Positions 2-21,422 of a DNA stretch of 64,000 nt are shown one piece after another (the first letter of the stretch is position 1; every line of letters begins with the position of its first letter). The notes beneath the pieces were generated by a model that searched no databases, was not told where the DNA came from, and worked only from the letters and a program-made list of their open reading frames with translations. Made by a program: the position numbers and the translations under genes. Location of the stretch: assembly GCA_032372955.1 (NCBI GenBank), contig GCA_032372955.1_4725.1; one strand, given 5' to 3'. The DNA comes from Escherichia coli (GTDB lineage: Bacteria > Pseudomonadota > Gammaproteobacteria > Enterobacterales > Enterobacteriaceae).

Positions 2-715
2 GGTGGCGTAGACACGCTGAAAAGCAACATCGATACCTTCAATCAGATGTTCCTTAAATCAGATGGTTATTCGGTTATTGATGGTTTAGGATTAAACATC
101 ATCGACTTCCATTTAGATATGGTTGAAAAACTTCCCGTTGATTATCTGTCTTTCTTGCACGCTGTCAAATCGACACTGGAAAATCGCGGTTCCGTGGAAG
201 GTGCTGACGTTATCACCCCGACGGTTTCCGGAAAACGTATCCGCTACATCAACGGCGCAGTCTTCTTGAAAGAATTCGACGCATCAAAAGACAATATCAT
301 CGATGCGGTTAAACGTTACCTCGACTTGGATATTGTCGTTGACGATGTTGAATGGGATAACGATCCAGAAACGTACGTCCTACCGACACCTGACGATTTG
401 CGTAGCGTTCGACAACTGACGTTCGCGAAAGATCTGTTGATGGTAACAAAACGCGGACGCGCTTTCTCTGAGATATTCTCTCGCAATAAAATCCGTACCA
501 TGGAGCGCATCCAGGAAATCACCATGAAACGCTTCAACGAGCAGAATTTTGATGCGAGCTACCAACAGTACATCGAGATCTATCCTAAGCTCGTTAAGCG
601 TGCGATTCTGCTTTGCGGTAAAGAGAACCGTATTGAAAACCAATTCGCTTACCAATATCTTCGTGCATTGACCTCATTTATCAACACTCTCGTTAAAGCT
701 TATACCAAAGGTTAA
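2..715 (+). CDS. hypothetical protein, 5' end outside window
   Basis: The frame is open from base 2, with no stop before the first in-window ATG (47). The stop is at 713-715, 9 nt before the next gene. Confidence 0.6.
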   Translation, partial: GGVDTLKSNIDTFNQMFLKSDGYSVIDGLGLNIIDFHLDMVEKLPVDYLSFLHAVKSTLENRGSVEGADVITPTVSGKRIRYINGAVFLKEFDASKDNIIDAVKRYLDLDIVVDDVEWDNDPETYVLPTPDDLRSVRQLTFAKDLLMVTKRGRAFSEIFSRNKIRTMERIQEITMKRFNEQNFDASYQQYIEIYPKLVKRAILLCGKENRIENQFAYQYLRALTSFINTLVKAYTKG

Positions 716-724
716 GGAACTAAC

Positions 725-2014
725 ATGGCCCGCATCTCTCTTTTTGATAACGTCAATAAAAACGCATTCGAACTCGCTTTGCTGAGCGCCGAAGATCTTC
801 TTGCGACAATTCCAGCGGAGCAAAATGATCCCAACGCAGAAATCGAAGAGGACGAAGTTGAGTTGGTGATTCGACGCACCGACGAGACGATCGATGAATC
901 CAGCGAACTGGCTGAAATTGCAGTGCGTACTTCAGCAACGCTGGAAGATACCGCATACATGATCGCACCTACGATCCCTGAAGCACGTGCGAGCGACATC
1001 GCCCTTATCCGTCAGATTGCTTCGACGTCAGCAGCTAACCTGGGGATGTCTGATGAAGACATGTTCCAAGCTGACGATCGTTTGGTGGAAGGGCAAGCTA
1101 TTGTGCTGGAAGGCTTTAAAGAACGCGCCGCGCAAGCGTTATACGCAGTTTGGGTAATCATTGCGAACATGGCTGAACAGTTATGTAAGCTGATTCAGCT
1201 GCTTTTCAAAAACCTTGCGGTAGCGTATAAAAAAATTACCGATGTTGCAACCGCTGTAAATAAAGGCGAGCGTCACATCAAACAACTAAATAAACCGACC
1301 GGGAATATGATTAGCATGTTCCCTAACGCAAAAACGGTTAACGCGTTGGAGATTCGTAAACATATTGAGCAGTTGGCGGCATCCACACAAGCATCCTCTT
1401 TTTTACTACTCCAAACCGACGACATTAACAAGAAAGTTAATAAACTAACTGATTTGACGACACTTGCCGATATTCTGGACGATTATATTTACGCTATCAA
1501 GCCTGCGTTAAAAGGACTCAAAATACCAGAAAGCGGTGGGAAACGTTACGTCGTTAAAGGTCTCGACGCTCTTATGGCTGAGAAAGATACCATTAAGGCC
1601 TGCGCGCTCGTGAAGAATATTCAGATCGAAGTGGAAGAAACCGCGACTGGTAGTATCGAAAACGCGAACATTTTCAATAACGACGACGAATTGAAAGCCG
1701 CACTGACCTCGTATCTTAACGTATTTCGTATTGTTGACCCTGCATATTTCCGCCAGACCGAAAGTTTAACGAGTACTGTCGAACGTACTGCTAAACTAAA
1801 CGGTATGAAAATTAAAACTAAATGGGACGGTATGCTCGACAATCTGCCGGAAGCAGATCGTGAAACCGTTCGTCCTTATATAAGCGCCATCTCAGAAATG
1901 GCGCGCTTGAGCGCGGTATTAGCAGCTAAGATCCTCCGTGTTGCTAACCGTCAATATGCGGATGCTGTATTTGCTGCTGCGAAATACTTCGATGCCGTAA
2001 CCGAAAAAGCATAA
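725..2014 (+). CDS. paralog family A protein (possibly a processed head/virion-internal protein; function unproven)
   Basis: 429-aa ORF with AAGGA 6 nt upstream of the ATG. It shares VIRRTDE, IRQIASTSAANLGM and LEGF+amphipathic-helix motifs with the ORFs at 2163, 3448 and 4570. Confidence 0.55.
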   Translation: MARISLFDNVNKNAFELALLSAEDLLATIPAEQNDPNAEIEEDEVELVIRRTDETIDESSELAEIAVRTSATLEDTAYMIAPTIPEARASDIALIRQIASTSAANLGMSDEDMFQADDRLVEGQAIVLEGFKERAAQALYAVWVIIANMAEQLCKLIQLLFKNLAVAYKKITDVATAVNKGERHIKQLNKPTGNMISMFPNAKTVNALEIRKHIEQLAASTQASSFLLLQTDDINKKVNKLTDLTTLADILDDYIYAIKPALKGLKIPESGGKRYVVKGLDALMAEKDTIKACALVKNIQIEVEETATGSIENANIFNNDDELKAALTSYLNVFRIVDPAYFRQTESLTSTVERTAKLNGMKIKTKWDGMLDNLPEADRETVRPYISAISEMARLSAVLAAKILRVANRQYADAVFAAAKYFDAVTEKA

Positions 2015-2024
2015 CCACCATGTC

Positions 2025-2056
2025 CCTTCCTCCAACCCAACAGGGAAGGAGGAAGG
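2025..2056. terminator. conserved Y/R hairpin, copy 1 (inverted orientation, A:A mismatch type)
   Basis: ccttcctccaaccc-aaca-gggaaggaggaagg, followed by tttatg. It lies after gene 725-2014. Confidence 0.7.
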
Positions 2057-2162
2057 TTTATGGCGTTGGTATCCGGTTATCTTTTGACTTCTGAATCAAC
2101 GGTTCAGAAGGTAAATGGCGGACATGATCACCCGCCAAGATTTTCCTACGTAGGAGTTCCAA

Positions 2163-3464
2163 ATGGAAAACGTGTTACAACAACCCATGACATCGTTGTT
2201 TCAAGGGATTGATGATGAACCTGTAGAATCGTTCGGTATCGCTGGCAACGTTCTCGATGCCAGTAATATTGAGAATCAGTTTCACTCAATCGACGAAACA
2301 AACACGGTGATGAAAGAAGGTGAACAACACCTTCAAACATTAAATAAACTCAGGCTGGATATTGTCCCAAACATGGCTGAAGTTGAAGAACGCGATATCA
2401 GCACCATCAAACATATCGCATCGACCGCAGCAGCCGGAATGGGAATGGACCCAAACCACATCATCGAGGGCCTGGAAGAGGAAACTTCCAGCGGGATGAG
2501 CTTGAACATGGAAAGTTTTGACAAGACCGCAAAAGAAGCAACCCGAGCATTATGGCTTTACATGAACGAATTGTACCGCTACGCGATCGATATCTGCAAT
2601 CGTTGTTATCGTCGATTCGTTCGTCAGGTGAAGCCGTTATTAAAGAAAGCGGCTGCGTTGAAAACTATTTCCGAATACGATGTTAATGAAGATAACGCAT
2701 TCTGGGAGAACTTTCCTTACAACTGGCGATATCTTCATCCGAAAGGCGGTGCGGTAAACAGTATTGCTGATCTACGGCAAACCGCAGAAAACATCGTAAT
2801 GAACACAGGAATCCTCGCAGCATGGCATCGTCAACTCGATCCGTTATTAATGCAGCTACTAAAAGCACCGTCAGTGGATAACAAAGAAGGTATCGCTGCA
2901 GAAAACGAAGCCTGTTGGGAGAATATTCTCGAGGTCATCAACGATGCGTTATGCGAGAAGCCGTTAAAGCCTACCGGAACAGACGATATCGTCGTTGACG
3001 TACCTGTTGGTGCTTCCTATCTTAAAGTACACAACATCGAAGACGCAACAGGAACGCAATTCAGCGTTGTGTGGGAAGCCGTATCTTTCCAATCGGCAAA
3101 AGATGGATTCCGTTTCTTACCGTTAAACGATGTTATCGACGGAACCAACGCGATCATCAACGCATTAAGTACGTTATGGTCTACGCTACGACAGTTGGAA
3201 TTTAAACGTTGTCTTGAAGCAAGCCTTGCCGACCAGGACGAATGGATTCAACCTTACGAGCGTTTGCTACAACAGATGGACAACAACGATACCGCATCAT
3301 CCGCTATCGTTCAACGTGTGGGTATCGCGCGTAACGTCGTCGGCTTCCAGGCGGTTGCTTTTGCCCGATTCCTGTTAACTGTCTGCGACGTCATCGACGG
3401 TCTTAACGATTATCTTGACGCGCATCTCGAACTTGAGGAAACCAGCAATGCTGCAGACCTATGA
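2163..3464 (+). CDS. paralog family A protein (function unproven)
   Basis: 433-aa ORF with AGGAG upstream. IKHIASTAAAGMGM and MESFDKTAKEATRALW align with IRQIASTSAANLGM and LEGFKERAAQALYAVW of ORF 725. Confidence 0.55.
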   Translation: MENVLQQPMTSLFQGIDDEPVESFGIAGNVLDASNIENQFHSIDETNTVMKEGEQHLQTLNKLRLDIVPNMAEVEERDISTIKHIASTAAAGMGMDPNHIIEGLEEETSSGMSLNMESFDKTAKEATRALWLYMNELYRYAIDICNRCYRRFVRQVKPLLKKAAALKTISEYDVNEDNAFWENFPYNWRYLHPKGGAVNSIADLRQTAENIVMNTGILAAWHRQLDPLLMQLLKAPSVDNKEGIAAENEACWENILEVINDALCEKPLKPTGTDDIVVDVPVGASYLKVHNIEDATGTQFSVVWEAVSFQSAKDGFRFLPLNDVIDGTNAIINALSTLWSTLRQLEFKRCLEASLADQDEWIQPYERLLQQMDNNDTASSAIVQRVGIARNVVGFQAVAFARFLLTVCDVIDGLNDYLDAHLELEETSNAADL

Positions 3465-4554
3465 TGGACAGATTCAAGCGTTAAGCTTGTTAAAAACATT
3501 ACCTGTGCCAGAGACAGCAACGCAACGACAAATTCACCAGCTTATTTATCAGCAGGCGGGCGGTATGCTGCCGACCAGTTATACCACAGAAAGTGCTGAT
3601 CTCCTCACGATGGAATCGTACAATCAGCTTGCGATGAAAATTATCAAAGCTATCATCGATGCGATCTGGACAACGTTGCGGAACATTACTGCGTTTATCG
3701 CCAGGTTTATCGATCGTAGTCGCGCACTACAGCTCGAACTCAGCAATATCCGTCGTCACTACACAAAAGCCGTTGGTCGTAAACCCATCGCGCAAAGCTT
3801 CGAAGCTTCGACGACGCTGGCCCCACACTTACGGTATGGGAACAGTTTTGGGTTCGATTTCACAACCGGGAATACGCTATACAAACAGAATTTAGCAATC
3901 GCTGAATATCTCTTGTCTTCGTCGTTCCGTGATGATTTCAAGCAGTTCGCTAATACGTTAGATAGAGCGCTCGACATTATCTTAAAACAGACGGATACCG
4001 CATTAATCGATGTGATTAACCGTGATGCGTACACGTTATTGCATAAAGTCTACAGTACGCTGAACGAATCGAGACTTGTCAATGTAACGTTACTGGGCAA
4101 CCGTACGCTACGACTCGATCAGGTTACCGCCTCAGGTTCCGGATCAATTCAACAGTCCCTCGCCATTCAATCTGCACGGTTTGAAGTCCAGGATGTACCG
4201 TCCATTGAACGGGATATGGTGGTTACAACGCCAACATTAGAACAAGTTGGTGTGCTACTCGAGTCTGTAAATACGGGTGTTGATTTGCTGGTTAGTTACC
4301 ATCGTAAAAAGTACGCCAACGAGTTACTCGAAATCGCAGGGAATCTACAAGCAAAACTTAACGACGTTTATCGTCAACAAGGTCAGTTGTCAGTTGCTAC
4401 TGCTTCTGATGATGCTATGGTAGCCCTTTCTCGATACCTTACAGCGTATACCGCGTGGATCAAGGTGCCGCTTGTGGGCTATGCCGAGTTCTTTACGAAT
4501 TCAACAGCGGCTATGCTTGATGTCTCTCGCGAGGCGCTGAAATATTACTTTTAA
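3448..4554 (+). CDS. paralog family A protein (function unproven)
   Basis: I moved the start to ATG 3448 (GAGGAA 7 nt upstream); the track start is 3415. It overlaps the previous gene by 17 nt. It carries TMESYNQLAMKIIKAIIDAIW, matching the family ME[SG][FY]-helix motif. Confidence 0.5.
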   Translation: MLQTYDGQIQALSLLKTLPVPETATQRQIHQLIYQQAGGMLPTSYTTESADLLTMESYNQLAMKIIKAIIDAIWTTLRNITAFIARFIDRSRALQLELSNIRRHYTKAVGRKPIAQSFEASTTLAPHLRYGNSFGFDFTTGNTLYKQNLAIAEYLLSSSFRDDFKQFANTLDRALDIILKQTDTALIDVINRDAYTLLHKVYSTLNESRLVNVTLLGNRTLRLDQVTASGSGSIQQSLAIQSARFEVQDVPSIERDMVVTTPTLEQVGVLLESVNTGVDLLVSYHRKKYANELLEIAGNLQAKLNDVYRQQGQLSVATASDDAMVALSRYLTAYTAWIKVPLVGYAEFFTNSTAAMLDVSREALKYYF

Positions 4555-4569
4555 GAGGAATAACGCTTT

Positions 4570-7500
4570 ATGAAAAAATCGTTAGCTGATCTGATGCGTA
4601 AGTCGCATCTTAACCTGGAAAGCGGCGATACACCTATCGAAGTCAAAGCAACGCTTTCTACCGATAAAGAAGAGCAAGTGATCGCATTACCTACAGCGGC
4701 ACGGCCAGACAGCATCGAAGCGACGATCGAATCAGATACGCTCGAGGAAGGGGCTACCGTTGATGACGCCGTTCGTGTGATTCGTAGCACGGATGAGAAC
4801 GGTGAGGATGTCGTACGTGCTGTTATTGTGACCCGTCCTATTGATGGTAGTTTACGAATTCGTTTCACACCGAGCAGCGGTGGTGTGACCATGGAAGACG
4901 GTAACGATGTTCAACCGTTCGTTCTGATCGCGGTACCGACCGCACCTGGCGAAGAGCCGAAGAACCCATATCCGGCAAACGCGCCAACCGAAACACCGGC
5001 ACCGAAAGTGACCAATGATCCGACCGTTAACGCTGACCGTGACAACCTGAAGAACAAGATTCAGGATGCGGCTAACGCCATCGACCCGACCAACCCAGCA
5101 CAAATCGAACAGGCAGCACAACCTGCGGAAACCACCGAAGGTGTTAAAGGTAACGTCGTCGAACCGGAAAAAGCAGAACCTGTTGCTGAAACAGCGGCTG
5201 CGGCAGCCGAGGTGACGCCAGAAACCAAAACAACGGAAGAACCCATCAAAGTCACCGTGATTAAACGTGTCGTGGAGAAAGTAGAAAAGGTTGAAGATAA
5301 CGTCGCTGACGAACAACCTGTTGTCGACGCTAATGACGGTAATACCGGTGAGCAGAAAGCCGAAGCAGTTGCCCAGGAAACAGAACTGCAAGGCGATGTT
5401 GAGGTCGATAACGCTGACGAAACACCCACCGAGGACAGCACCACCGAACCTGCGTCCGAAGAACCTGCTAACACCGACGCTGACGCTGGTACCACCGACG
5501 ACACAACCACCAAGGGTGATGAAAACACCAAAGGTGACGATGATGAAGACGACGAAAACGAAGAAGATGAAGATCTGAAACAAGAGTCGTTCGAAATTCA
5601 TCAAGAGCTGGAAGCCCGTGGTGTATTAGATGTTCCTGTTGTTGAACAGCGCGCATCGGTTATTCTCGGTGAAGGTGAAACAGATGTAACCGTCATTGAA
5701 ACAGAACAACCGTACATTCCTGGCACCATGGTGGTACGTCGTCTTGATGGGGATAAGAGTGTTATTGTTCGCCGTACTCGTTACGCTGAACGCTTTAACG
5801 CTGATGGTCAGGGTGAAGCGATCGCCATTGTCGACCCTACTCTGCAAGGCGAACTGAAAATGGAATTCCGTCCGGCTGAAGGTCCGATGGAAAGCTTCGA
5901 GATTCGTCCTGAAATCAAAGACGAATACATCATGGAATCGTACAAACAGCTTGATATCGCACTGAATAGCGATCTCAATCTGGAAGACGGGGAAAAGCAA
6001 CCAGGTCGCTTTAAACAGATTCTGAAATCGGTTTACGAAGCGGTCGCGAAGTTCTTAAAAGCCCTCGTGGCACGTTTGAAAAATCTCTTTGGTGTTAATA
6101 AGAAAAAAATCGAAGGGAAGGCCAACAAGCTGACCAAAGAACAACGCACAGCACCGGTGATGAAACTGCTTCCTCCGCCGAGTAATACTTCGGATGAAAA
6201 GAAAGTCAACGTCGAATGGAACAAACTCGATACGCTGCTTGCGAACGACGCTAAATCCGTCGATAAAATCGTAAACGCGGTAAAAGACAGCAAACGTATC
6301 GCTGAAGCATCCCGTAAGTTCTTCGACCAGCTGAAGGATCTTAAAGAAGGCGAAAGTCCAAACGCTGATACGGACATGCTGACAGCAACAACAATGTCTG
6401 GCGTGGCCGCGTTCGGACATAGCGCCGACGCCGCTTTAGACGGTATTCGTAAGTTCCGTGACGAACTTAGCGCCATGAAACAGCAGGATGATGCTGTACC
6501 GTCTAACGTTAGCGTTGATATGCTGATCGATGCGTCAACGAAACTGTTTAACGAAGACCTTCTGAAAGCAGCTACACAACTTCAGGAGACAGCTGAACGG
6601 CTAATCCGTGACCTCGATAAGAGCGGTAGCGATTATGATGTTGGCTACATCGTTAAACGCACGCGCACACTGATGAACTTTGCGACAACAGCATGCACCG
6701 TCTACGGATTCGCTGCGAAAGAACTCGGCGATGTTACCGTTCGTATACTCACCGCTGTTGCAGCGGCTGATAACGGCGATCTCAAACAGGAAGAGTACCA
6801 GGATGTTGCTGGTGAAAACGATCCGGTTGTAACCGTCGAGACATTGGAAGGCGATGCTGGTACTCGTGTTGTTGCTGAGGCGGAAATCGTTGACGATCCT
6901 GCGGTGGTGGAATTCGTTGAGCGTGCTGAAGAAGCGCAGCGAAATCTGGCTATCGGTCGCCATGCGGTGAGCGCGGTGGAAGGTATTCTGGTAGCGGCAC
7001 GCGAGATCGGTCCTGATAACTTCCAGGGTAACGTCGAAGCTACCGAAATTGCGATGGAAGGATTCATGGATACCGTTAAGAGTGCGGTCAACCGTATCGG
7101 TAACTGGATTGAAACCAACCACCGTTACTATACCGCCGCTACGGCTCCATGGGATAAGCTGTTCGCCGAAACGCAGCAAGCGCTGGCCAAAGCGCGTCGC
7201 GGTAACCCAGCAGCGGAACGGATTATTCTGAAACGTTTCATCCGTCATCTTACCATCGGTGGTGAACCTGTTACCGATGTGAAGAAGCTCATCGCTGCGT
7301 TGGGTGAAATCAAAATGCTTGGTAACATGACGCGTGAATTAATCGTTGCTATCGATCGTGAACTCAGCGAAGTGCGGAAGAGCAACCAGTCCGAAACATC
7401 CGCTGGATCGGTTGTTGGTCTGAAGCGTATTCCTATTCAGAAATGGGATAAGCTTATGGTCGCTACCGTACAGCCGTGGAAAGACAGCGATCGTAAAGGC

Positions 7501-7956
7501 GTTGGGTCTAAAGCGTATCTTGGTGAAACGCACATCGTGAAGGTGAGCGCGACCTATGCGACAACGCGTAACAACCCGAACGAGGAAGCAGCGAAACTGA
7601 TGCAGTGGATCTACACCGGTATCAATCGCCAGTTTACGGTTTCTGACGACCTCACCAGTGAGGAATTACCGGTAGCCACTATCAGTGAACTGGAGGCAGT
7701 GCTGCGTGCGGCTCGTGAAGCGCATGAAGCTTGGCTTATTGCTGACAACGCCATGCAGACCCTGCGTTCAATCGATAAATTCCTGGATAGCGAACTCAAC
7801 GTTGAGAACGATGTTAATAATGTCGTTAACTACGGTATTGTTCTCGGCCTGGAAGATTGGTTGTTCCATCCGGCATTGACGTTATGGCAACAGTTCAATA
7901 AACCGATGCAAGCGGTGCTTTTCCTTATCAAAGCCCATTGCGGTGCCTACAAGTAA
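4570..7956 (+). CDS. large (1128 aa) family A-related protein with an acidic, P/T/E-rich low-complexity segment
   Basis: AGAGGA RBS. The N-terminus has VIRSTDENGED, as in ORF 725. It contains MESFEI, IMESYKQL and AMEGFMDTVKSAVNRIGNW motifs. There is a low-complexity region at roughly nt 4927-5590, including DDDEDDENEEDED. Confidence 0.6.
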   Translation: MKKSLADLMRKSHLNLESGDTPIEVKATLSTDKEEQVIALPTAARPDSIEATIESDTLEEGATVDDAVRVIRSTDENGEDVVRAVIVTRPIDGSLRIRFTPSSGGVTMEDGNDVQPFVLIAVPTAPGEEPKNPYPANAPTETPAPKVTNDPTVNADRDNLKNKIQDAANAIDPTNPAQIEQAAQPAETTEGVKGNVVEPEKAEPVAETAAAAAEVTPETKTTEEPIKVTVIKRVVEKVEKVEDNVADEQPVVDANDGNTGEQKAEAVAQETELQGDVEVDNADETPTEDSTTEPASEEPANTDADAGTTDDTTTKGDENTKGDDDEDDENEEDEDLKQESFEIHQELEARGVLDVPVVEQRASVILGEGETDVTVIETEQPYIPGTMVVRRLDGDKSVIVRRTRYAERFNADGQGEAIAIVDPTLQGELKMEFRPAEGPMESFEIRPEIKDEYIMESYKQLDIALNSDLNLEDGEKQPGRFKQILKSVYEAVAKFLKALVARLKNLFGVNKKKIEGKANKLTKEQRTAPVMKLLPPPSNTSDEKKVNVEWNKLDTLLANDAKSVDKIVNAVKDSKRIAEASRKFFDQLKDLKEGESPNADTDMLTATTMSGVAAFGHSADAALDGIRKFRDELSAMKQQDDAVPSNVSVDMLIDASTKLFNEDLLKAATQLQETAERLIRDLDKSGSDYDVGYIVKRTRTLMNFATTACTVYGFAAKELGDVTVRILTAVAAADNGDLKQEEYQDVAGENDPVVTVETLEGDAGTRVVAEAEIVDDPAVVEFVERAEEAQRNLAIGRHAVSAVEGILVAAREIGPDNFQGNVEATEIAMEGFMDTVKSAVNRIGNWIETNHRYYTAATAPWDKLFAETQQALAKARRGNPAAERIILKRFIRHLTIGGEPVTDVKKLIAALGEIKMLGNMTRELIVAIDRELSEVRKSNQSETSAGSVVGLKRIPIQKWDKLMVATVQPWKDSDRKGVGSKAYLGETHIVKVSATYATTRNNPNEEAAKLMQWIYTGINRQFTVSDDLTSEELPVATISELEAVLRAAREAHEAWLIADNAMQTLRSIDKFLDSELNVENDVNNVVNYGIVLGLEDWLFHPALTLWQQFNKPMQAVLFLIKAHCGAYK

Positions 7957-17415: not shown

Positions 17416-17426
17416 GGATACTTTCA

Positions 17427-19649
17427 ATGAATGATAAAACCCTTCTTAGCCAACAGGTCGCGGCCACTCGCCAGTTCCTGACCGCTAATGGTAGCAAACC
17501 AGCAGACAAAGGTCTGGAGAACACCTTCCTGTCTATGGAATCTGCTTCTAAGGTTGATTTCAAATCCATGGACAAACTGGTTAACGAAATGGATGTTAAG
17601 AGCTTCAGCAGCGACATCCGTAAAGCAGAAGAACCGGTTCTGTCCATGCTGGGCTTCGAAACCACCACTCCGGAAGAGAAGCAGCGTATTGAAGAACAGC
17701 TGTTCACCATGAACGCACAGCAGGCTCGTGCAGCAGCACTGATCATGCTGGCTCATGGCAACCCGGTGGAATATGCTAAACAAGCACGTTCCATGAACAT
17801 CAGCACCACTCCGTCTGGCCGTGAAGTTGACAGCTCTAACTTCGTCATGATGGCCGCCGATTCCTGCGGTTGCGAATCTGAAGAACTGGTTCAGCTGTCC
17901 TACGACCAGAAAGAACTGCGTGACATGATGCCGTACTCCGTTGTGTTCAACGTGAAGGCTTCTCGTCTGAGCCGCATGGGTAACGAACTGTACAACACCA
18001 TCGTTCTGGCTCCGAACCAGATCGGTTACGACGTATCTTTCCGTCGTCCGCTGGTGTTCAACCACCTGCGTCGTAACGCTGACGGTACTCCGGCTGATTG
18101 GGTACGTCGTCCGCTGCTGGATGCGTTCATGTACAACGACGTTCTGTCCAACGACGTGACCGATCTGCATCCGATCTATCGTGCTGACGATGCTAACGCG
18201 CAGTACTTCGTTGACAAAACTATCGTTGCTCCGCGTGACATCGAAATTAAAGGCGTAACTTACAAAACGTCTTACCTGGCCGTTGATAAACTGATCGACA
18301 TGATCGGTATTGCTGAAGACGATAGCATCCTGGCTAACGGTTACAGCGACAACACCGACGCGCTGGACGCTCAGATCACGCTGACCAAAATCCTGGTGGA
18401 AATCAAATCCACCAAACACAGCAAAACCTCTTACGTACCGTTCGACGTATCTGGTCTGATCACCAACGGTTTCCAGAAATCCCTGGAAGGCGACTTCCGC
18501 AAAATGACCCTGGCGTTCGACACCCACTCCATCTTCGTTGATGAGAACACCGTTGACGTTAAAGGTGCACGAGCTGAAGCGCTGCAGGACATCATCGATT
18601 CGAAATCCGCTGCTCAGCTGGCAATCGAAGTTTACGGTTCTTCCAACGTAGAGAAAGCCGGTCTGCGTGTTAACGGCGCTAACGCTGAACTGTATCGTCT
18701 GGTCGATCGTGACAACATCGAACAACCGCGTAAGGGCGAAGAGTTCAAACAGCTGGCTGAAGACCTGAGCTTCAAACTGGTTGGTTACGAACTGCGTATC
18801 CGCCGTAACAACAGCAACCGTCGTGAGCGTGGTAAGCACCTTGACTTCAACATGAAGCAAGAACGTTACGCAATCGGCCTGCTGGCTCCGTTCTCCATTC
18901 CTCGTCCGCTGGATTGGGAAGAAAACGCTGCTGACCTGGACGTTCTGATCCAAGCTGCTAACGCACGTTTCGACAACCTGATGGTTGAGAAACTGTTCAG
19001 CTACAAAGACGCACTGAAAGCGGTTGCGACCTCTCGCTTCCGTCAGTTCGGCGACATCCAGATCGAAGGTTTCGGTCGTTACCTGATCCGTCCGTGGTTC
19101 GAAGAAATCAATCTGGACCTGGAGAAATCTGTTCAGGGTACCACCACTGCAGAACGTCGTGCTGAAGTGTCCGCTGCGATCATGAACGTGATTCGTGAGA
19201 TGGCATACCGCATGTACTCCGAGTCTGGTTATCAGCCAGCTCTGCAGCTGCTGTCTTCCAACGCTGATGAGAAACCGCGTTGCGTAGTAGCAACTGACAA
19301 CTACATCCCGCAGTTCCTGCAGACCGATGGCGATTTCCGTACCGTTGGTGTGAGCTTCAACTTCGTGGTTGTAGATAACCCGAACGTCATGCTGCGCGAT
19401 AAGATCTTCGTGACCCTGTCTCGTGGTATCCAGGGTTCTCCGGATCCGCTGACCTTCGGTATGTTCCTGTATGTACCGGAACTGGTATCTGTTGCTCAGG
19501 TTACCCGTAACGGTCAGGTTTCTAAAGAAACCATGGTTCAGCCGCGCTGCCGCTTCGTTAACAACTGCCCGCTGCTGGGTCTGATTAACGTTGTGAACCT
19601 GCGTAAGGTCTACACTGAAAACATCAAGCTGCCTGTTCAGACTAACTGA
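17427..19649 (+). CDS. putative major capsid protein (giant-phage size class)
   Basis: 740 aa. It has the strongest host-like codon optimisation in the window (CTG, CGT, GGT, AAC, TTC, GAA dominate), which implies very high expression. As I recall, the size matches phiKZ-class capsid proteins (~750 aa). It has its own upstream motif and a strong hairpin at 19749-19778. Confidence 0.6.
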   Translation: MNDKTLLSQQVAATRQFLTANGSKPADKGLENTFLSMESASKVDFKSMDKLVNEMDVKSFSSDIRKAEEPVLSMLGFETTTPEEKQRIEEQLFTMNAQQARAAALIMLAHGNPVEYAKQARSMNISTTPSGREVDSSNFVMMAADSCGCESEELVQLSYDQKELRDMMPYSVVFNVKASRLSRMGNELYNTIVLAPNQIGYDVSFRRPLVFNHLRRNADGTPADWVRRPLLDAFMYNDVLSNDVTDLHPIYRADDANAQYFVDKTIVAPRDIEIKGVTYKTSYLAVDKLIDMIGIAEDDSILANGYSDNTDALDAQITLTKILVEIKSTKHSKTSYVPFDVSGLITNGFQKSLEGDFRKMTLAFDTHSIFVDENTVDVKGARAEALQDIIDSKSAAQLAIEVYGSSNVEKAGLRVNGANAELYRLVDRDNIEQPRKGEEFKQLAEDLSFKLVGYELRIRRNNSNRRERGKHLDFNMKQERYAIGLLAPFSIPRPLDWEENAADLDVLIQAANARFDNLMVEKLFSYKDALKAVATSRFRQFGDIQIEGFGRYLIRPWFEEINLDLEKSVQGTTTAERRAEVSAAIMNVIREMAYRMYSESGYQPALQLLSSNADEKPRCVVATDNYIPQFLQTDGDFRTVGVSFNFVVVDNPNVMLRDKIFVTLSRGIQGSPDPLTFGMFLYVPELVSVAQVTRNGQVSKETMVQPRCRFVNNCPLLGLINVVNLRKVYTENIKLPVQTN

Positions 19650-19748
19650 ACTACCGTAGCTGCTTCGTTGGACGATATTCTTGACGACAACGTTGCGGAT
19701 GGTTTCATTGCACCGGACATTCATCCGGCACCGTGATACATAAGTCAG

Positions 19749-19836: not shown

Positions 19837-19985
19837 CAGACGCCTGCGATGAATAAGGCATAGACAACACGTAAGGTCGTTCTCGCGCTAGGAACGATGC
19901 TGAAACCGTCGGCTGTCGGCTCGATAAGAACAAGAAAAGGGAAATGCGTTATGCGTGATAGTTTTCAATCAGATGGAGGTTGACG

Positions 19986-21422
19986 ATGCCCTCCATGCCA
20001 ATATGTGATACCGCGTTCGAACCGTGGGATGGTACGCACGCTTATCGCATTGACGGTTATGCTGAACCGTTATATGACCTGGAATTAGGATGGGCATGTA
20101 TTAATGAATCTGGCCATACCGTGTTGGTGATCACCTCCGACAATATGTTCCAGTACATTCCTGGTAGGGTTGAGGACGGCAATACATTCAGGATCGTACG
20201 ACGTTCAAAATTTCGTAGTCCTGTAATAGTTGACAGCCATGACGTATCTAATGCGAATGGTGCATTCAGAAACTTCGTCTACGCGGGTAGACGTCGGGAT
20301 ATACTCCGTGTTAAAAACGGCACAGGTTACGCGATAAGGAAACCGCATATCCGTCGTATTGTTAACACAGAGAAAATGCCGCGTCTACTAGACCAGCAAG
20401 ACTGGTACGATACGCTGGATGAAATATGTCAAATTGACCTCAACACGTTGAACTTTAATCAACCCGCATATGTCGCGCAAATCAACGTGGCAATCGTAAA
20501 AGTTAAAGGAGAATACAAAAGCGCAGACCACGTTACGAAAGGGATTGATCACCCCTACATCGCAACGTGCGCGCGGAGCTTGACGGGAAAAACAGAGGGT
20601 TTCCGAATTCTCGGAACGCAACTCACTATCCATTGGACGCCACCCGACTTTCATAATCCGTATAGCTTATGGGTTAACGTGTTAGGGAAAGCGTTCGAAA
20701 TAAAACCAACGAATGGAGCAGGCGCGCCAGGTATGTTGGTTACCTTCGGGAATAATGACTCCATCTTCGTACCGGTCGAAGATTTGGAAAAAGAGATGTG
20801 GAAGTACAATGTTTTTCCGACACGTGAATCGGCATTGCATTGGCGCGACCCCGTCCAAAAAGAAGCCTACAAAAATGATTTCGACCAACGTAGCTACGAA
20901 CGTAAGGCATCGGAAGAAACCCTTAAAGGGGTGATGGCTGAAATGCGACGTATGGCGGATGAACACAAGGCAGTTATCGCACAGATGCATGAGGCGCATC
21001 GCGCCGACGCAAAGCTGCGCGATGAACAACATAAAGCCGAACTCGATCAGCTTAAAGACGAACAAAAACGTAGGATGGAACAACACCAAGCCGAAATGAA
21101 ACGTCAAGATGATCTACGTAAACAAATACACGAAGATTATCAAGCTGATTTAAAACGTCGTGATGATGAGGCTAAACGCAAACATGAAGAATTCGTCGCT
21201 GAACTTCGTCGTCGAGATGAAGAATCCAAACGTAAGCACGACGAGTTTGCTGCTGAGATACGCCGACGTGATGAAGAGGCAAAAAGACAACGTGAAGCGG
21301 AAGAAGCGCGACGTCAACGTAACGTCGATGTTTGGAAAGCCGCTGCGAGTATAACTGCGGCCGTTGTCGGTATAGGTATGACCTTTTTCAAGATTCTTGA
21401 GAAGGCGTCATCGAAAAAGTAA
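19986..21422 (+). CDS. hypothetical protein with a charged 18-aa tandem repeat and a C-terminal transmembrane anchor
   Basis: ATG 19986 lies 6 nt after GGAGG; the track start is TTG 19980. There are three 54-nt repeats at 21150-21311 (RRDDEAKRKHEEFVAE-like). The C-terminus is hydrophobic: AAASITAAVVGIGMTFFKIL. Confidence 0.6.
   Translation: MPSMPICDTAFEPWDGTHAYRIDGYAEPLYDLELGWACINESGHTVLVITSDNMFQYIPGRVEDGNTFRIVRRSKFRSPVIVDSHDVSNANGAFRNFVYAGRRRDILRVKNGTGYAIRKPHIRRIVNTEKMPRLLDQQDWYDTLDEICQIDLNTLNFNQPAYVAQINVAIVKVKGEYKSADHVTKGIDHPYIATCARSLTGKTEGFRILGTQLTIHWTPPDFHNPYSLWVNVLGKAFEIKPTNGAGAPGMLVTFGNNDSIFVPVEDLEKEMWKYNVFPTRESALHWRDPVQKEAYKNDFDQRSYERKASEETLKGVMAEMRRMADEHKAVIAQMHEAHRADAKLRDEQHKAELDQLKDEQKRRMEQHQAEMKRQDDLRKQIHEDYQADLKRRDDEAKRKHEEFVAELRRRDEESKRKHDEFAAEIRRRDEEAKRQREAEEARRQRNVDVWKAAASITAAVVGIGMTFFKILEKASSKK
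21150..21311 (+). repeat. three tandem 54-nt coding repeats (charged 18-aa unit)
   Basis: LKRRDDEAKRKHEEFVAE / LRRRDEESKRKHDEFAAE / IRRRDEEAKRQREAEEAR. Confidence 0.75.

Follow-up and report, generated by a model that had tools for sequence, protein, structure and literature searches.

PF12699 internal-head proteins of a Goslar-like giant phage share a conserved glutamate junction that aligns with mapped prohead-protease cuts

Among the proteins that nucleus-forming giant phages package and inject, those of the PF12699 family are the most abundant. In SPN3US, cuts in two of these proteins, gp53 (AQE-125/GWKE) and gp54 (ARE-137/SLWD), have been mapped by semi-tryptic peptides, and gp53 is also cleaved in vitro by gp245. 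The P3 residue is Ala in 14 of the 14 mapped SPN3US cuts; it is Ser, Ala or Gly in the phiKZ cuts, whose inner-body positions come from secondary citations, and the 201phi2-1 enzyme accepts Thr at this position. Cleavage in phiKZ is reported to detach a helix-rich domain from N-terminal fragments lining the capsid. In Escherichia phage Goslar, all six paralogs have been assigned the PF12699 fold (Basu et al, bioRxiv 2026). Goslar gp53–gp56 were detected by LC-MS/MS in purified virions at ~50-330 copies each, with a virion location resolved neither to head nor to tail (Basu et al, bioRxiv 2026). The dominant Goslar paralog is gp58, with ~2,150 copies.

We analyzed a 64-kb stretch of DNA (the window) that is ~95% identical to Goslar. 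The region encoding four consecutive ORFs is 95.4% identical to Goslar gp56-gp53 in DNA sequence, with amino acid identities of 96-99% between the four proteins and Goslar gp56, gp55, gp54 and gp53. The genes of interest, listed in window coordinates, are:

2..715, + strand: last 237 aa of a fifth paralog, orthologous to Goslar gp57; the translation matches the gp57 C-terminus, and the gene is truncated by the window start
725..2014, + strand: gp56 ortholog, 429 aa, an internal head protein of the PF12699 fold, 98.8% identical to Goslar gp56
2116..2137, no strand assigned: GC-rich hairpin separating gp56 from gp55; the Goslar annotation lists it as a terminator
2163..3464, + strand: gp55 ortholog, 433 aa, 96.1% identical to Goslar gp55 and matching gp56 by BLASTP (1e-8)
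3448..4554, + strand: gp54 ortholog, 368 aa from Goslar's ATG, 97.3% identical to Goslar gp54
4570..7956, + strand: gp53 ortholog, 1128 aa, 96.7% identical to Goslar gp53
17427..19649, + strand: major capsid protein, Goslar gp41 ortholog, 98.9% identical to Goslar gp41

These four ORFs are thus the known PF12699 internal-head proteins of a Goslar-like chimallivirus, a giant E. coli phage. An alternative TTG start for gp54 at position 3415 would give a 379-aa protein, and a scan for promoters and terminators found no signal above background. In the Goslar type the array comprises six genes, so that gp57 and the sixth paralog gp58, encoded just upstream of the window start, join the four that the first-pass annotation had recognized. 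The array is syntenic with phiKZ gp92-97 and SPN3US gp53-54, and the gene order in the window agrees with phiKZ gp87-97 and SPN3US gp48-54, as well as with five related contigs from metagenomes or genomes. Across Goslar, phiKZ, SPN3US and these five contigs, the block lies downstream of homologs of phiKZ gp87-91 and upstream of the capsid gene. Orthologs of all four proteins are present in purified Goslar virions, at ~55-60 (gp56), ~46-50 (gp55), ~70 (gp54) and ~330 (gp53) copies per virion. The proposal that these are internal-head or ejection proteins encoded upstream of the capsid gene is therefore borne out by PF12699 links, synteny and virion presence in Goslar. It was correct and mostly known already; the phage is a further case of an established internal-head array.

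The evidence supports assignment of the proteins to the PF12699 internal-head family ("paralog family A") of phiKZ-like giant phages, with links that differ from member to member. Profile comparison with hhalign connects gp57 with gp56 (P 1.6e-16), gp57 with gp55 (5.7e-6) and gp56 with gp55 (1.9e-6). Against Pfam PF12699, with a cut-off of 27 bits, Goslar gp58 scores 82.4 bits and gp57 21.3 bits; gp54 gives a weak match below the cut-off (20.5 bits, E 3e-4) that runs from its junction (described below) onward, and a separate scan of the last 368 aa of gp53 (residues 761-1128) gave 27.2 bits (E 2.9e-6), just above the cut-off. The same scan returned no match for gp56, gp55 or full-length gp53. 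With a custom HMM of the phiKZ and SPN3US members, gp54 was the only match (E 1e-4); word-index searches recovered nothing beyond close relatives of gp56, and an exhaustive profile search recovered nine proteins. The AlphaFold 2 model of gp56 has pLDDT 70-90 for residues 161-429, and in a Foldseek search of BFVD it returned 18 matches with E<=1e-3, all of them jumbo-phage virion or internal head proteins, with a best E of 5.5e-6 and TM-scores of only 0.3-0.45. The description of the four ORFs as paralogs thus stands on profile, Pfam and fold links, whereas BLASTP joins only the ORFs at 725 and 2163 (E 1e-8).

gp53 has a more elaborate layout, with a strand-rich N-terminus, an acidic low-complexity segment at ~125-350, a first helical region at ~456-735, a linker, and the C-terminal PF12699 domain. 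Its AlphaFold 2 model is of low confidence (pLDDT 36), so only the secondary structure was used. The first helical region (about 456-750) has no detectable family match. An internal duplication of gp53 is unproven, since its two helical regions are not significantly similar, and a repeat of the N-terminal strands is marginal (9 of 500 shuffles reach its score).

The four proteins had been grouped by an acidic N-terminal segment, an I[RK][QH]IAST-type motif and a short junction with a central Met-Glu or Leu-Glu. Every string that had been quoted is present in the translations, including the two acidic segments (gp56 and gp53) and the IRQIASTSAANLGM and IKHIASTAAAGMGM motifs (ORFs 725 and 2163). 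The relevant sites are:

866..898, + strand: VIRRTDETIDE segment of gp56, residues 48-58, within the strongly conserved N-terminal region
1007..1048, + strand: IRQIASTSAANLGM motif of gp56, residues 95-108, common to gp55, gp57 and distant relatives
1100..1117, + strand: gp56 junction IVLE/GF, residues 126-131, proposed cut after E129; aligns with SPN3US gp53 AQE-125/GWKE
2406..2447, + strand: IKHIASTAAAGMGM motif of gp55, residues 82-95, present in the translation
2502..2519, + strand: gp55 junction LNME/SF, residues 114-119, proposed cut after E117; Glu in register with gp56 E129 and gp57 E122
3604..3621, + strand: gp54 junction LTME/SY, residues 53-58, proposed cut after E56; present in the translation
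4609..4626, + strand: LNLE/SG of gp53, E17, candidate short leader cut; L14, E17 and S18 invariant in homologs of 30% identity
4777..4809, + strand: VIRSTDENGED segment of gp53, residues 70-80, within predicted strands
4885..4902, + strand: VTME/DG of gp53, E109, another conserved site with Met-Glu; M108, E109, D110 and G111 invariant in homologs of 30% identity
5881..5943, + strand: gp53 double junction GPME/SF (E441, residues 438-443) and YIME/SY (E456, residues 453-458), preceding the first helical region
7048..7065, + strand: gp53 third junction IAME/GF, E830, residues 827-832, at the PF12699 domain start; M829, E830 and G831 invariant in homologs of 30% identity

GPME/SF of gp53 is an extra copy of the junction that had been overlooked. 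In the window's longest-ORF set, ME[SG][FYW] occurs five times in the four proteins (2,369 aa) and not once in the other ~17,700 aa; residue shuffles of the four proteins contain 0.02 such motifs on average, and none of 5,000 shuffles reaches five. We considered whether this recurrence could be an effect of chance or composition in unrelated ORFs that encode acidic, Met-rich and helix-rich proteins, as might be suggested by the lack of significance in most pairwise BLASTP comparisons among the four and by the missing mutual similarity of the two gp53 helical regions. The shuffles and the motif-free remainder of the window speak against this, as do Pfam and fold matches that back the relatedness of the proteins. 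In addition, the junction Glu is in register in all three hhalign links, and the junction is invariant in orthologs and kept in relatives at ~30% identity or less. With profile links, shuffles and distant-homolog conservation all opposed to it, we regard the chance explanation as effectively refuted and extremely improbable.

The gp56 motif is invariant in 20 orthologs and appears as L[VN][LMV]E/GF in distant relatives, and the gp54 junction varies to TLE/SY and TME/SH in orthologs, with Glu and Ser invariant. In a MAFFT family alignment, gp56 IRQIASTSAANLGM aligns with phiKZ ISRQAAAFMHVGME, and every junction Glu falls in the column of SPN3US gp53 E125 and gp54 E137, the known processed residues; the phiKZ paralogs have SLE/D, SQE/E, STE/D or SLE/S in this column. 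hhalign likewise places gp57 E122 on SPN3US gp53 E125 (P 2.5e-5), and gp55 E117 maps to SPN3US gp53 E95 or E125, both of which are mapped cuts. The register of gp58 against SPN3US is ambiguous. Homology in sequence therefore supports cleavage at the junction Glu.

Taking these comparisons together, we think it fairly probable that these PF12699 internal-head or ejection proteins are cut after the junction Glu by the protease (Goslar gp212) during head maturation. The conserved N-terminal region would most likely target each protein into the prohead, and may remain on the inner capsid wall. A short linker would then end in an x-[M/L/V]-E / [G/S]-[F/Y] junction, where the predicted helix-rich domain begins. 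The S80-family prohead protease gp212 would most likely cleave after the junction Glu, and probably also at additional upstream Glu sites; the cut would release the helix-rich domain, which would be packaged together with DNA and subsequently ejected into the host. Several such cut sites would lie in gp53. For the phage in the window, we infer both the cutting at the junction Glu and the fate of the N-terminal pieces.

The S80-type protease gene lies outside the 64-kb window. In Goslar, gp212 (~159 copies per virion) is annotated as the head maturation protease, and it aligns with phiKZ gp175, SPN3US gp245 and the PhiEaH1 protease; Goslar was not among the matches listed in a tblastn search with the PhiEaH1 protease. 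A linker in gp212 contains PTME-197/GFQK, which aligns with PALE-210/NY of phiKZ gp175; the autocleavage site of SPN3US gp245, AQE-203, falls within this linker too. PTME/GFQK is probably the autocleavage site of gp212. Among the Goslar virion peptides that we covered (those of Table S4 sorting from A to "ELK"), all three gp212 peptides come from residues 142-165, and the three that residues 202-268 should yield were not found.

The main alternative is that the junction is conserved for a structural or assembly role in the PF12699 fold and stays uncut in the Goslar clade: it could cap the first helix or dock onto scaffold, capsid wall or partner proteins, with processing at nearby [S/A/G]-x-E sites or with the proteins packaged largely intact. 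We consider this alternative possible, though rather unlikely. The residue at P3 speaks for it. Glu occupies P1 in all six junction copies, and P3 is Val in gp56, Asn in gp55, Thr in gp54, and Pro, Ile and Ala in gp53; the [AGS]-x-E rule cited by the first-pass annotation is thus broken in five of six copies, with only AME-830 in IAME/GF of gp53 carrying a classical A-x-E motif. Classical motifs do occur near the junctions, at SDE-111 in gp56, GLE-103 in gp55 and ATE-826 in gp53, and these could serve as the true sites if the junction is left intact. The gp56 junction also sits in the first turns of a long predicted first helix (residues 124-179). Against a purely structural role, cuts have been mapped at the aligned Glu of both SPN3US paralogs, and the Glu and the following Gly or Ser are invariant, with variable neighbors. 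Moreover, the linker of the protease itself contains ME/GF, which cannot be serving the PF12699 fold there, and peptides C-terminal to that site are missing from the virion peptides covered.

The capsid protein also bears on this alternative. The LSME/SA motif noted earlier is present at residues 35-40 of the gp41 ortholog. The cryoEM density of gp41 lacks the first 157 residues, placing the inferred mature end near residue 158. The capsid maturation cut is probably at GCE-150/S or SEE-153/L, a region that aligns with SPN3US ATE-130 and phiKZ E163. LSME/SA, with its Glu at residue 38, was rejected as the maturation site and is at most an internal propeptide cut. Retention of classical G-x-E and S-x-E motifs at the inferred mature end favors an uncut junction in the PF12699 proteins.

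Virion mass spectrometry of Goslar provides evidence on both sides. Our look-ups covered peptides sorting from A to "ELK", and junction peptides starting with G or S sort beyond this range; among the covered peptides, none begins or ends at a junction. A tryptic peptide spanning the gp53 AME/GF junction, EIGPDNFQGNVEATEIAMEGFMDTVK, was detected (score 36, area 541), showing that at least some gp53 is uncut at this site, as the structural alternative would predict; its signal is ~100-500 times below that of other gp53 peptides, which counts against that alternative. The uncleaved tryptic peptide DEYIMESYK, which spans gp53 E456, was not found among the covered peptides. Virions contain abundant peptides from the gp53 N-terminus (areas 11,000 and 79,000), indicating that this region is retained rather than simply removed. 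An N-terminal gp55 peptide was detected as well, and propeptide peptides of gp58 have areas of 927-4,880 versus a mean of ~124,000 per gp58 peptide, a low signal that favors cleavage; the presence of N-terminal peptides from gp53, gp55 and gp58 fits proteins packaged largely intact. The single N-terminal peptide of gp56 and the three of gp57 were not found in the covered range, from which several peptides of the mature part of gp57 are missing too. Semi-tryptic peptides with Asp, Glu or Ala at P1' were absent from the same range for TME-109 of gp53 (DGNDVQ...), NLE-472, SDE-111 (DMFQAD...), GLE-103 (EETSSG...), SAE-23 and ISLE-15, and the absence of the SDE-111 and GLE-103 products counts against processing at the nearby classical sites. 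For removal of a propeptide at the junction, then, the alignment with mapped SPN3US cuts stands, while the broken P3 rule, the spanning AME/GF peptide and the gp53 N-terminus in virions stand against it.

Conservation of the N-terminal region is a further point in favor of the structural alternative. Against the most distant ortholog, residues 1-129 of gp56 show 85% identity, compared with 57% for residues 130-429; the higher conservation lies in the N-terminal region and not in the "mature" domain, which is unusual for a disposable propeptide. It is conceivable, if somewhat doubtful, that recognition by the Goslar-clade protease has shifted from a small P3 residue to a hydrophobic P2 (Met, Leu or Val) with Gly or Ser at P1' and an aromatic P2', having co-evolved in the substrates and in the protease's own PTME/GF site, with gp53 acting as a polyprotein and the N-terminal pieces kept as capsid-lining or targeting modules. 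Retention of these pieces as functional modules would explain why they are conserved above the ejected helical domains. Such a motif variant, if real, would be a fourth specificity for the S80 protease family.

Cleavage after the junction Glu, our preferred reading, predicts cuts after E129, E117, E56, E441/E456 and E830, and after E197 in the protease. Shorter leaders may exist as well: NAFE-16/L is a candidate in gp56, and MKKSLADLMRKSHLNLE-17/SG of gp53 is a candidate leader end of the T4 type, in a region far longer than a T4 leader. Cut positions define the mature species that enter the host and can guide tagging, structural work and copy-number estimates, which currently rest on full-length masses.

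The nearest described proteins, Goslar gp53–gp56, are direct orthologs whose PF12699 fold, virion presence and copy numbers have already been reported (Basu et al, bioRxiv 2026); that preprint is silent on their proteolytic processing, on the junction motif and on the protease site. In phiKZ, the inner-body proteins gp92-97, gp162 and gp163, which are processed by gp175 (MEROPS S80), form a syntenic PF12699 paralog array. The phiKZ paralogs have conserved S-x-E sites in the same alignment column, and the phiKZ sites follow the S/A/G-x-E rule. phiKZ is reported to have an ordered inner body, whereas none was seen in Goslar by cryoEM. In SPN3US, gp53 and gp54 ("paralog family A", high-abundance ejection proteins) have PF12699 similarity and the same position after the gp48-52 block, and are likewise laid out as an N-terminal region of ~125-137 aa followed by a helix-rich domain. 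SPN3US cuts align with the VLE/GFKE and NME/SFDK junctions of the window, the 15-residue spacing of gp53 E441 and E456 resembles that of SPN3US gp54 E124 and E137, and SPN3US propeptides receive several cuts and are incompletely cleared from the head. The two systems differ in that SPN3US has two paralogs with >600 copies each, whereas the Goslar type has six with one dominant. P3 is always Ala in SPN3US, whereas the window junctions have V/N/T/P/I/A at P3 and Met or Leu at P2, with cuts that are predicted. LNLE-17/SG of gp53 resembles SLE-13/S of phiKZ gp93, E17/R of phiKZ gp162 and ARE-12/S of SPN3US.

A more distant parallel is phage T4, whose internal proteins IPI-III and Alt are likewise packaged, ejected, made as precursors and cut after Glu by the homologous prohead protease gp21. 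Of the Goslar-type junctions, V-L-E, V-V-E and I-M-E look similar to the T4 motif [L/I]-x-E. The T4 internal proteins, however, have no sequence or fold relation to PF12699, and their targeting sequences of ~10 residues contrast with highly conserved regions of 56-830 residues in the window proteins. Since the principle is already established for phiKZ, 201phi2-1 and SPN3US, the array described here extends known biology rather than changing it.

The stretch 725-7956 shares 95.4% DNA identity with vB_EcoM_Goslar, a nucleus-forming Escherichia jumbo phage (genus Goslarvirus). Its four counterparts there, Goslar_00056 to 00053, are annotated "hypothetical protein". At the amino-acid level our ORFs have 96-99% identity to these proteins (gp56, gp55, gp54, and gp53), whose names we use here:

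2-715, C-terminal part of the gp57 ortholog
725-2014, plus strand, gp56
2163-3464, plus strand, gp55
3448-4554, plus strand, gp54
4570-7956, plus strand, gp53
17427-19649, plus strand, major capsid gene, 98.9% identical to Goslar gp41

The first-pass annotation had described four consecutive paralogs, proposed to be internal-head or ejection proteins. Because part of gp57 lies at 2-715 and the gp58 gene lies immediately upstream of the window, these four are in fact four members of a six-gene array. The same gene order is found in phiKZ, where the capsid gene gp120 follows gp87-gp97, and in SPN3US, where the capsid gene gp75 follows gp48-gp54, and is preserved in five related contigs. A 2026 preprint on Goslar describes gp53-gp58 as virion proteins with the fold of PF12699 (the phiKZ internal head protein family), syntenic with phiKZ gp92-97 and present at ~330 (gp53), ~70 (gp54), ~50 (gp55), ~60 (gp56), ~50 (gp57), and ~2,150 (gp58) copies per virion; it does not discuss their processing. 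Orthology to these proteins, synteny, and the fold matches described below support the internal-head identity. Between gp56 and gp55, a gap of 148 nt contains a GC-rich hairpin with a 9-bp stem (2116-2137) that is annotated as a terminator in Goslar, suggesting that the genes are not transcribed as a single simple unit.

The four proteins had been linked by a shared ME[SG][FY] junction, which we write as x-[M/L/V]-E↓[G/S]-[F/Y], with cleavage proposed after the glutamate (arrow). All of the strings originally quoted are present in the ORFs named, and we identified a third junction copy in gp53 (GPME↓SF, residues 438-443), 15 residues ahead of YIME↓SY. The pattern ME[SG][FYW] has five occurrences in these proteins and none in the ~17,700 residues that make up the rest of the window's longest-ORF set; residue shuffles gave a mean of 0.02, and none of 5,000 reached five. 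BLASTP linked only gp56 and gp55 (1e-8). Profile comparison of ortholog alignments related gp57 to gp56 over the full length (P 1.6e-16), gp57 to gp55 (P 5.7e-6), and gp56 to gp55 (P 1.9e-6), each with the junction glutamate in register. The top-scoring profile alignments of gp53 and gp54 to the other paralogs were weak and also in register at the junction. Against PF12699, gp54 scored 20.5 bits, and the C-terminal 368 residues of gp53 scanned alone scored 27.2 bits (gathering score 27); full-length gp53 had no Pfam match at E<=0.1, its PF12699 domain being masked when the whole protein is scanned. Judged from sequence comparison, the paralogy is real and mostly beyond the reach of BLASTP.

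The related SPN3US proteins gp53 and gp54 ("paralog family A", PF12699) are cut by the prohead protease gp245 at mapped sites (gp53 ARE-12, AQE-95, and AQE-125; gp54 AQE-124 and ARE-137), giving mature ends (E)GWKETLK... and (E)SLWDDIK.... We aligned 15 proteins: gp56, gp55, and gp54 from the window, Goslar gp57 and gp58, SPN3US gp53 and gp54, and eight phiKZ paralogs. The junctions VLE↓GFKE, NME↓SFDK, and TME↓SYNQ share a column with SPN3US AQE-125↓GWKE and ARE-137↓SLWD, and phiKZ SLE↓D, SQE↓E, STE↓D, and SLE↓S occupy this column directly ahead of the first amphipathic helix. In hhalign comparisons, gp57 E122 was placed on SPN3US gp53 E125 (P 2.5e-5), and the gp55 junction glutamate aligned with E95 or E125, both mapped cuts. 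A further conserved site, x-x-E-[S/N/D]-[Y/F], lies 7-20 residues upstream of the junction, matches SPN3US gp54 AQE-124↓SYG, and is consistent with the double motif in gp53. Known protease motifs are A-x-E (SPN3US), S/A/G-x-E (phiKZ), S/A/G/T-x-E (201phi2-1), and L/I-x-E (T4); at the junction, the third residue before the cut (P3) is V, N, T, P, I, or A, a departure from the S/A/G rule that weakens the case for cleavage.

The string LSME↓SA near the capsid N-terminus had been grouped with the junctions, but it is not the maturation site: the classical motifs GCE-150↓S and SEE-153↓L adjoin the first ordered capsid residue, 158. An uninterrupted 766-aa antisense ORF (17424-19724, minus strand) covers the entire capsid gene; being longer, it replaced that gene in a greedy longest-ORF call, and it is almost certainly non-coding. 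The ORF at 19980-21422 (plus strand, 480 aa) occupies the position of Goslar gp40; its C-terminal third contains a highly charged repeat, RRDEE[A/S]KRKH[E/D]EF[V/A]AE[L/I]RRRDEE..., and the protein ends in a hydrophobic helix after it. The SPN3US and phiKZ portals lose a long N-terminal propeptide of 161-254 aa; the cryoEM model of the Goslar portal gp36 starts at residue 5 (2026 preprint), so this portal may not lose one.

The protease gene lies outside the window. Goslar gp212 carries the annotation head maturation protease, and each virion contains ~159 copies of it. The linker directly after its catalytic domain reads KYDSPTME-197↓GFQK; PTME-197↓GFQK aligns with phiKZ gp175 SPALE-210↓NY and PhiEaH1 SPSCE↓SF, and the SPN3US gp245 self-cut, AQE-203, is located in the same linker. 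We consulted the Goslar virion mass-spectrometry table (Table S4), whose peptides are listed alphabetically, over the range A to "ELK"; peptides starting at the junction (G... or S...) sort later, and so fall outside this range. Within it, gp212 peptides came from residues 142-165 (3/3), and none of three expected from residues 202-268 was found. The gp212 C-terminus thus appears to be lost at or near TME↓GF, the same type of string as the junction.

In the same range, the uncut gp53 peptide DEYIMESYK was absent. A 26-residue gp53 peptide across AME↓GF was detected at very low intensity (area 541); areas of the other gp53 peptides inspected were 11,000-287,000 for three and 1,040-2,700 for the remainder. 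N-terminal gp53 peptides are abundant in virions, showing that this region is kept, cut or uncut. Peptides of the gp58 propeptide reached a few percent of the area that gp58 peptides have on average, and one N-terminal gp55 peptide was present. The N-terminal peptides of gp56 and gp57 that we looked for were not found between A and "ELK", and several peptides belonging to mature gp57 were likewise missing. The reported gp58 coverage of 69.32% is exactly the fraction of its 440 residues made up by 168-440 together with two detected propeptide peptides, one of 18 and one of 14 aa; this figure would fit maturation at E167↓E168, at the level of arithmetic coincidence only.

We modeled gp56 with AlphaFold 2 from an alignment of 20 orthologs; confidence is good over residues 161-429 and low over residues 1-160. 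It predicts a long helix at residues 124-179, placing the helix start at the junction, E129↓G130. Foldseek matches to viral models all came from jumbo phages and were labeled "internal head protein" or "virion structural protein" (E down to 5.5e-6), including proteins of 201phi2-1, Psa21, RP12, and Ea35-70. For full-length gp53 the model was of such poor quality that we used its secondary structure alone, which predicts strands at the N-terminus, an extended acidic stretch that is disordered, and a pair of helical regions, both starting near a junction. The acidic stretch (residues ~125-350) is of low complexity (E 17%, A 13%, T 12%, D 11%) and is flanked by two strand-rich segments ending ...LRIRFTP..GVTME↓DG and ...LKMEFRP.EGPME↓SF, a marginally significant repeat (score reached in 9/500 shuffles).

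The junction is invariant among orthologs, and relatives from an exhaustive profile search retain it as LVLE↓GFQ, LVLE↓GFK, LNME↓GFK, or LVME↓GFK. In gp53 homologs at 30% identity, invariant columns include L14/E17/S18, M108-G111, and M829-G831. Distant gp53 homologs (P0144-P0153; 1,089 to 1,670 aa) carry varying counts of inserted helical modules, each after repeated x-E↓SF ... [M/A]E↓DADK motifs, pointing to modular expansion of the family. Compared with its most distant ortholog, gp56 of the window is 85% identical over the N-terminal 129 residues and 57% identical over the helical domain. The presumed propeptide thus evolves more slowly, which argues for a lasting function, as in phiKZ gp93, rather than a disposable propeptide. 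Cleavage of phiKZ gp93 and gp162 detaches helix-rich domains from N-terminal pieces (gp93 14-84, gp162 19-134) that stay bound on the inner capsid wall.

On balance, we favor the junction glutamate as a real cut in most of the paralogs. The initial reading is thus correct on protein identity and probably on the junction, given the SPN3US alignment and the gp212 linker; its proposal that the N-terminal part is removed is unsupported for gp53, whose N-terminal peptides are abundant. Processing of PF12699 proteins by an S80 prohead protease is a known system, which the finding extends to the Goslar clade, possibly with an altered site motif.
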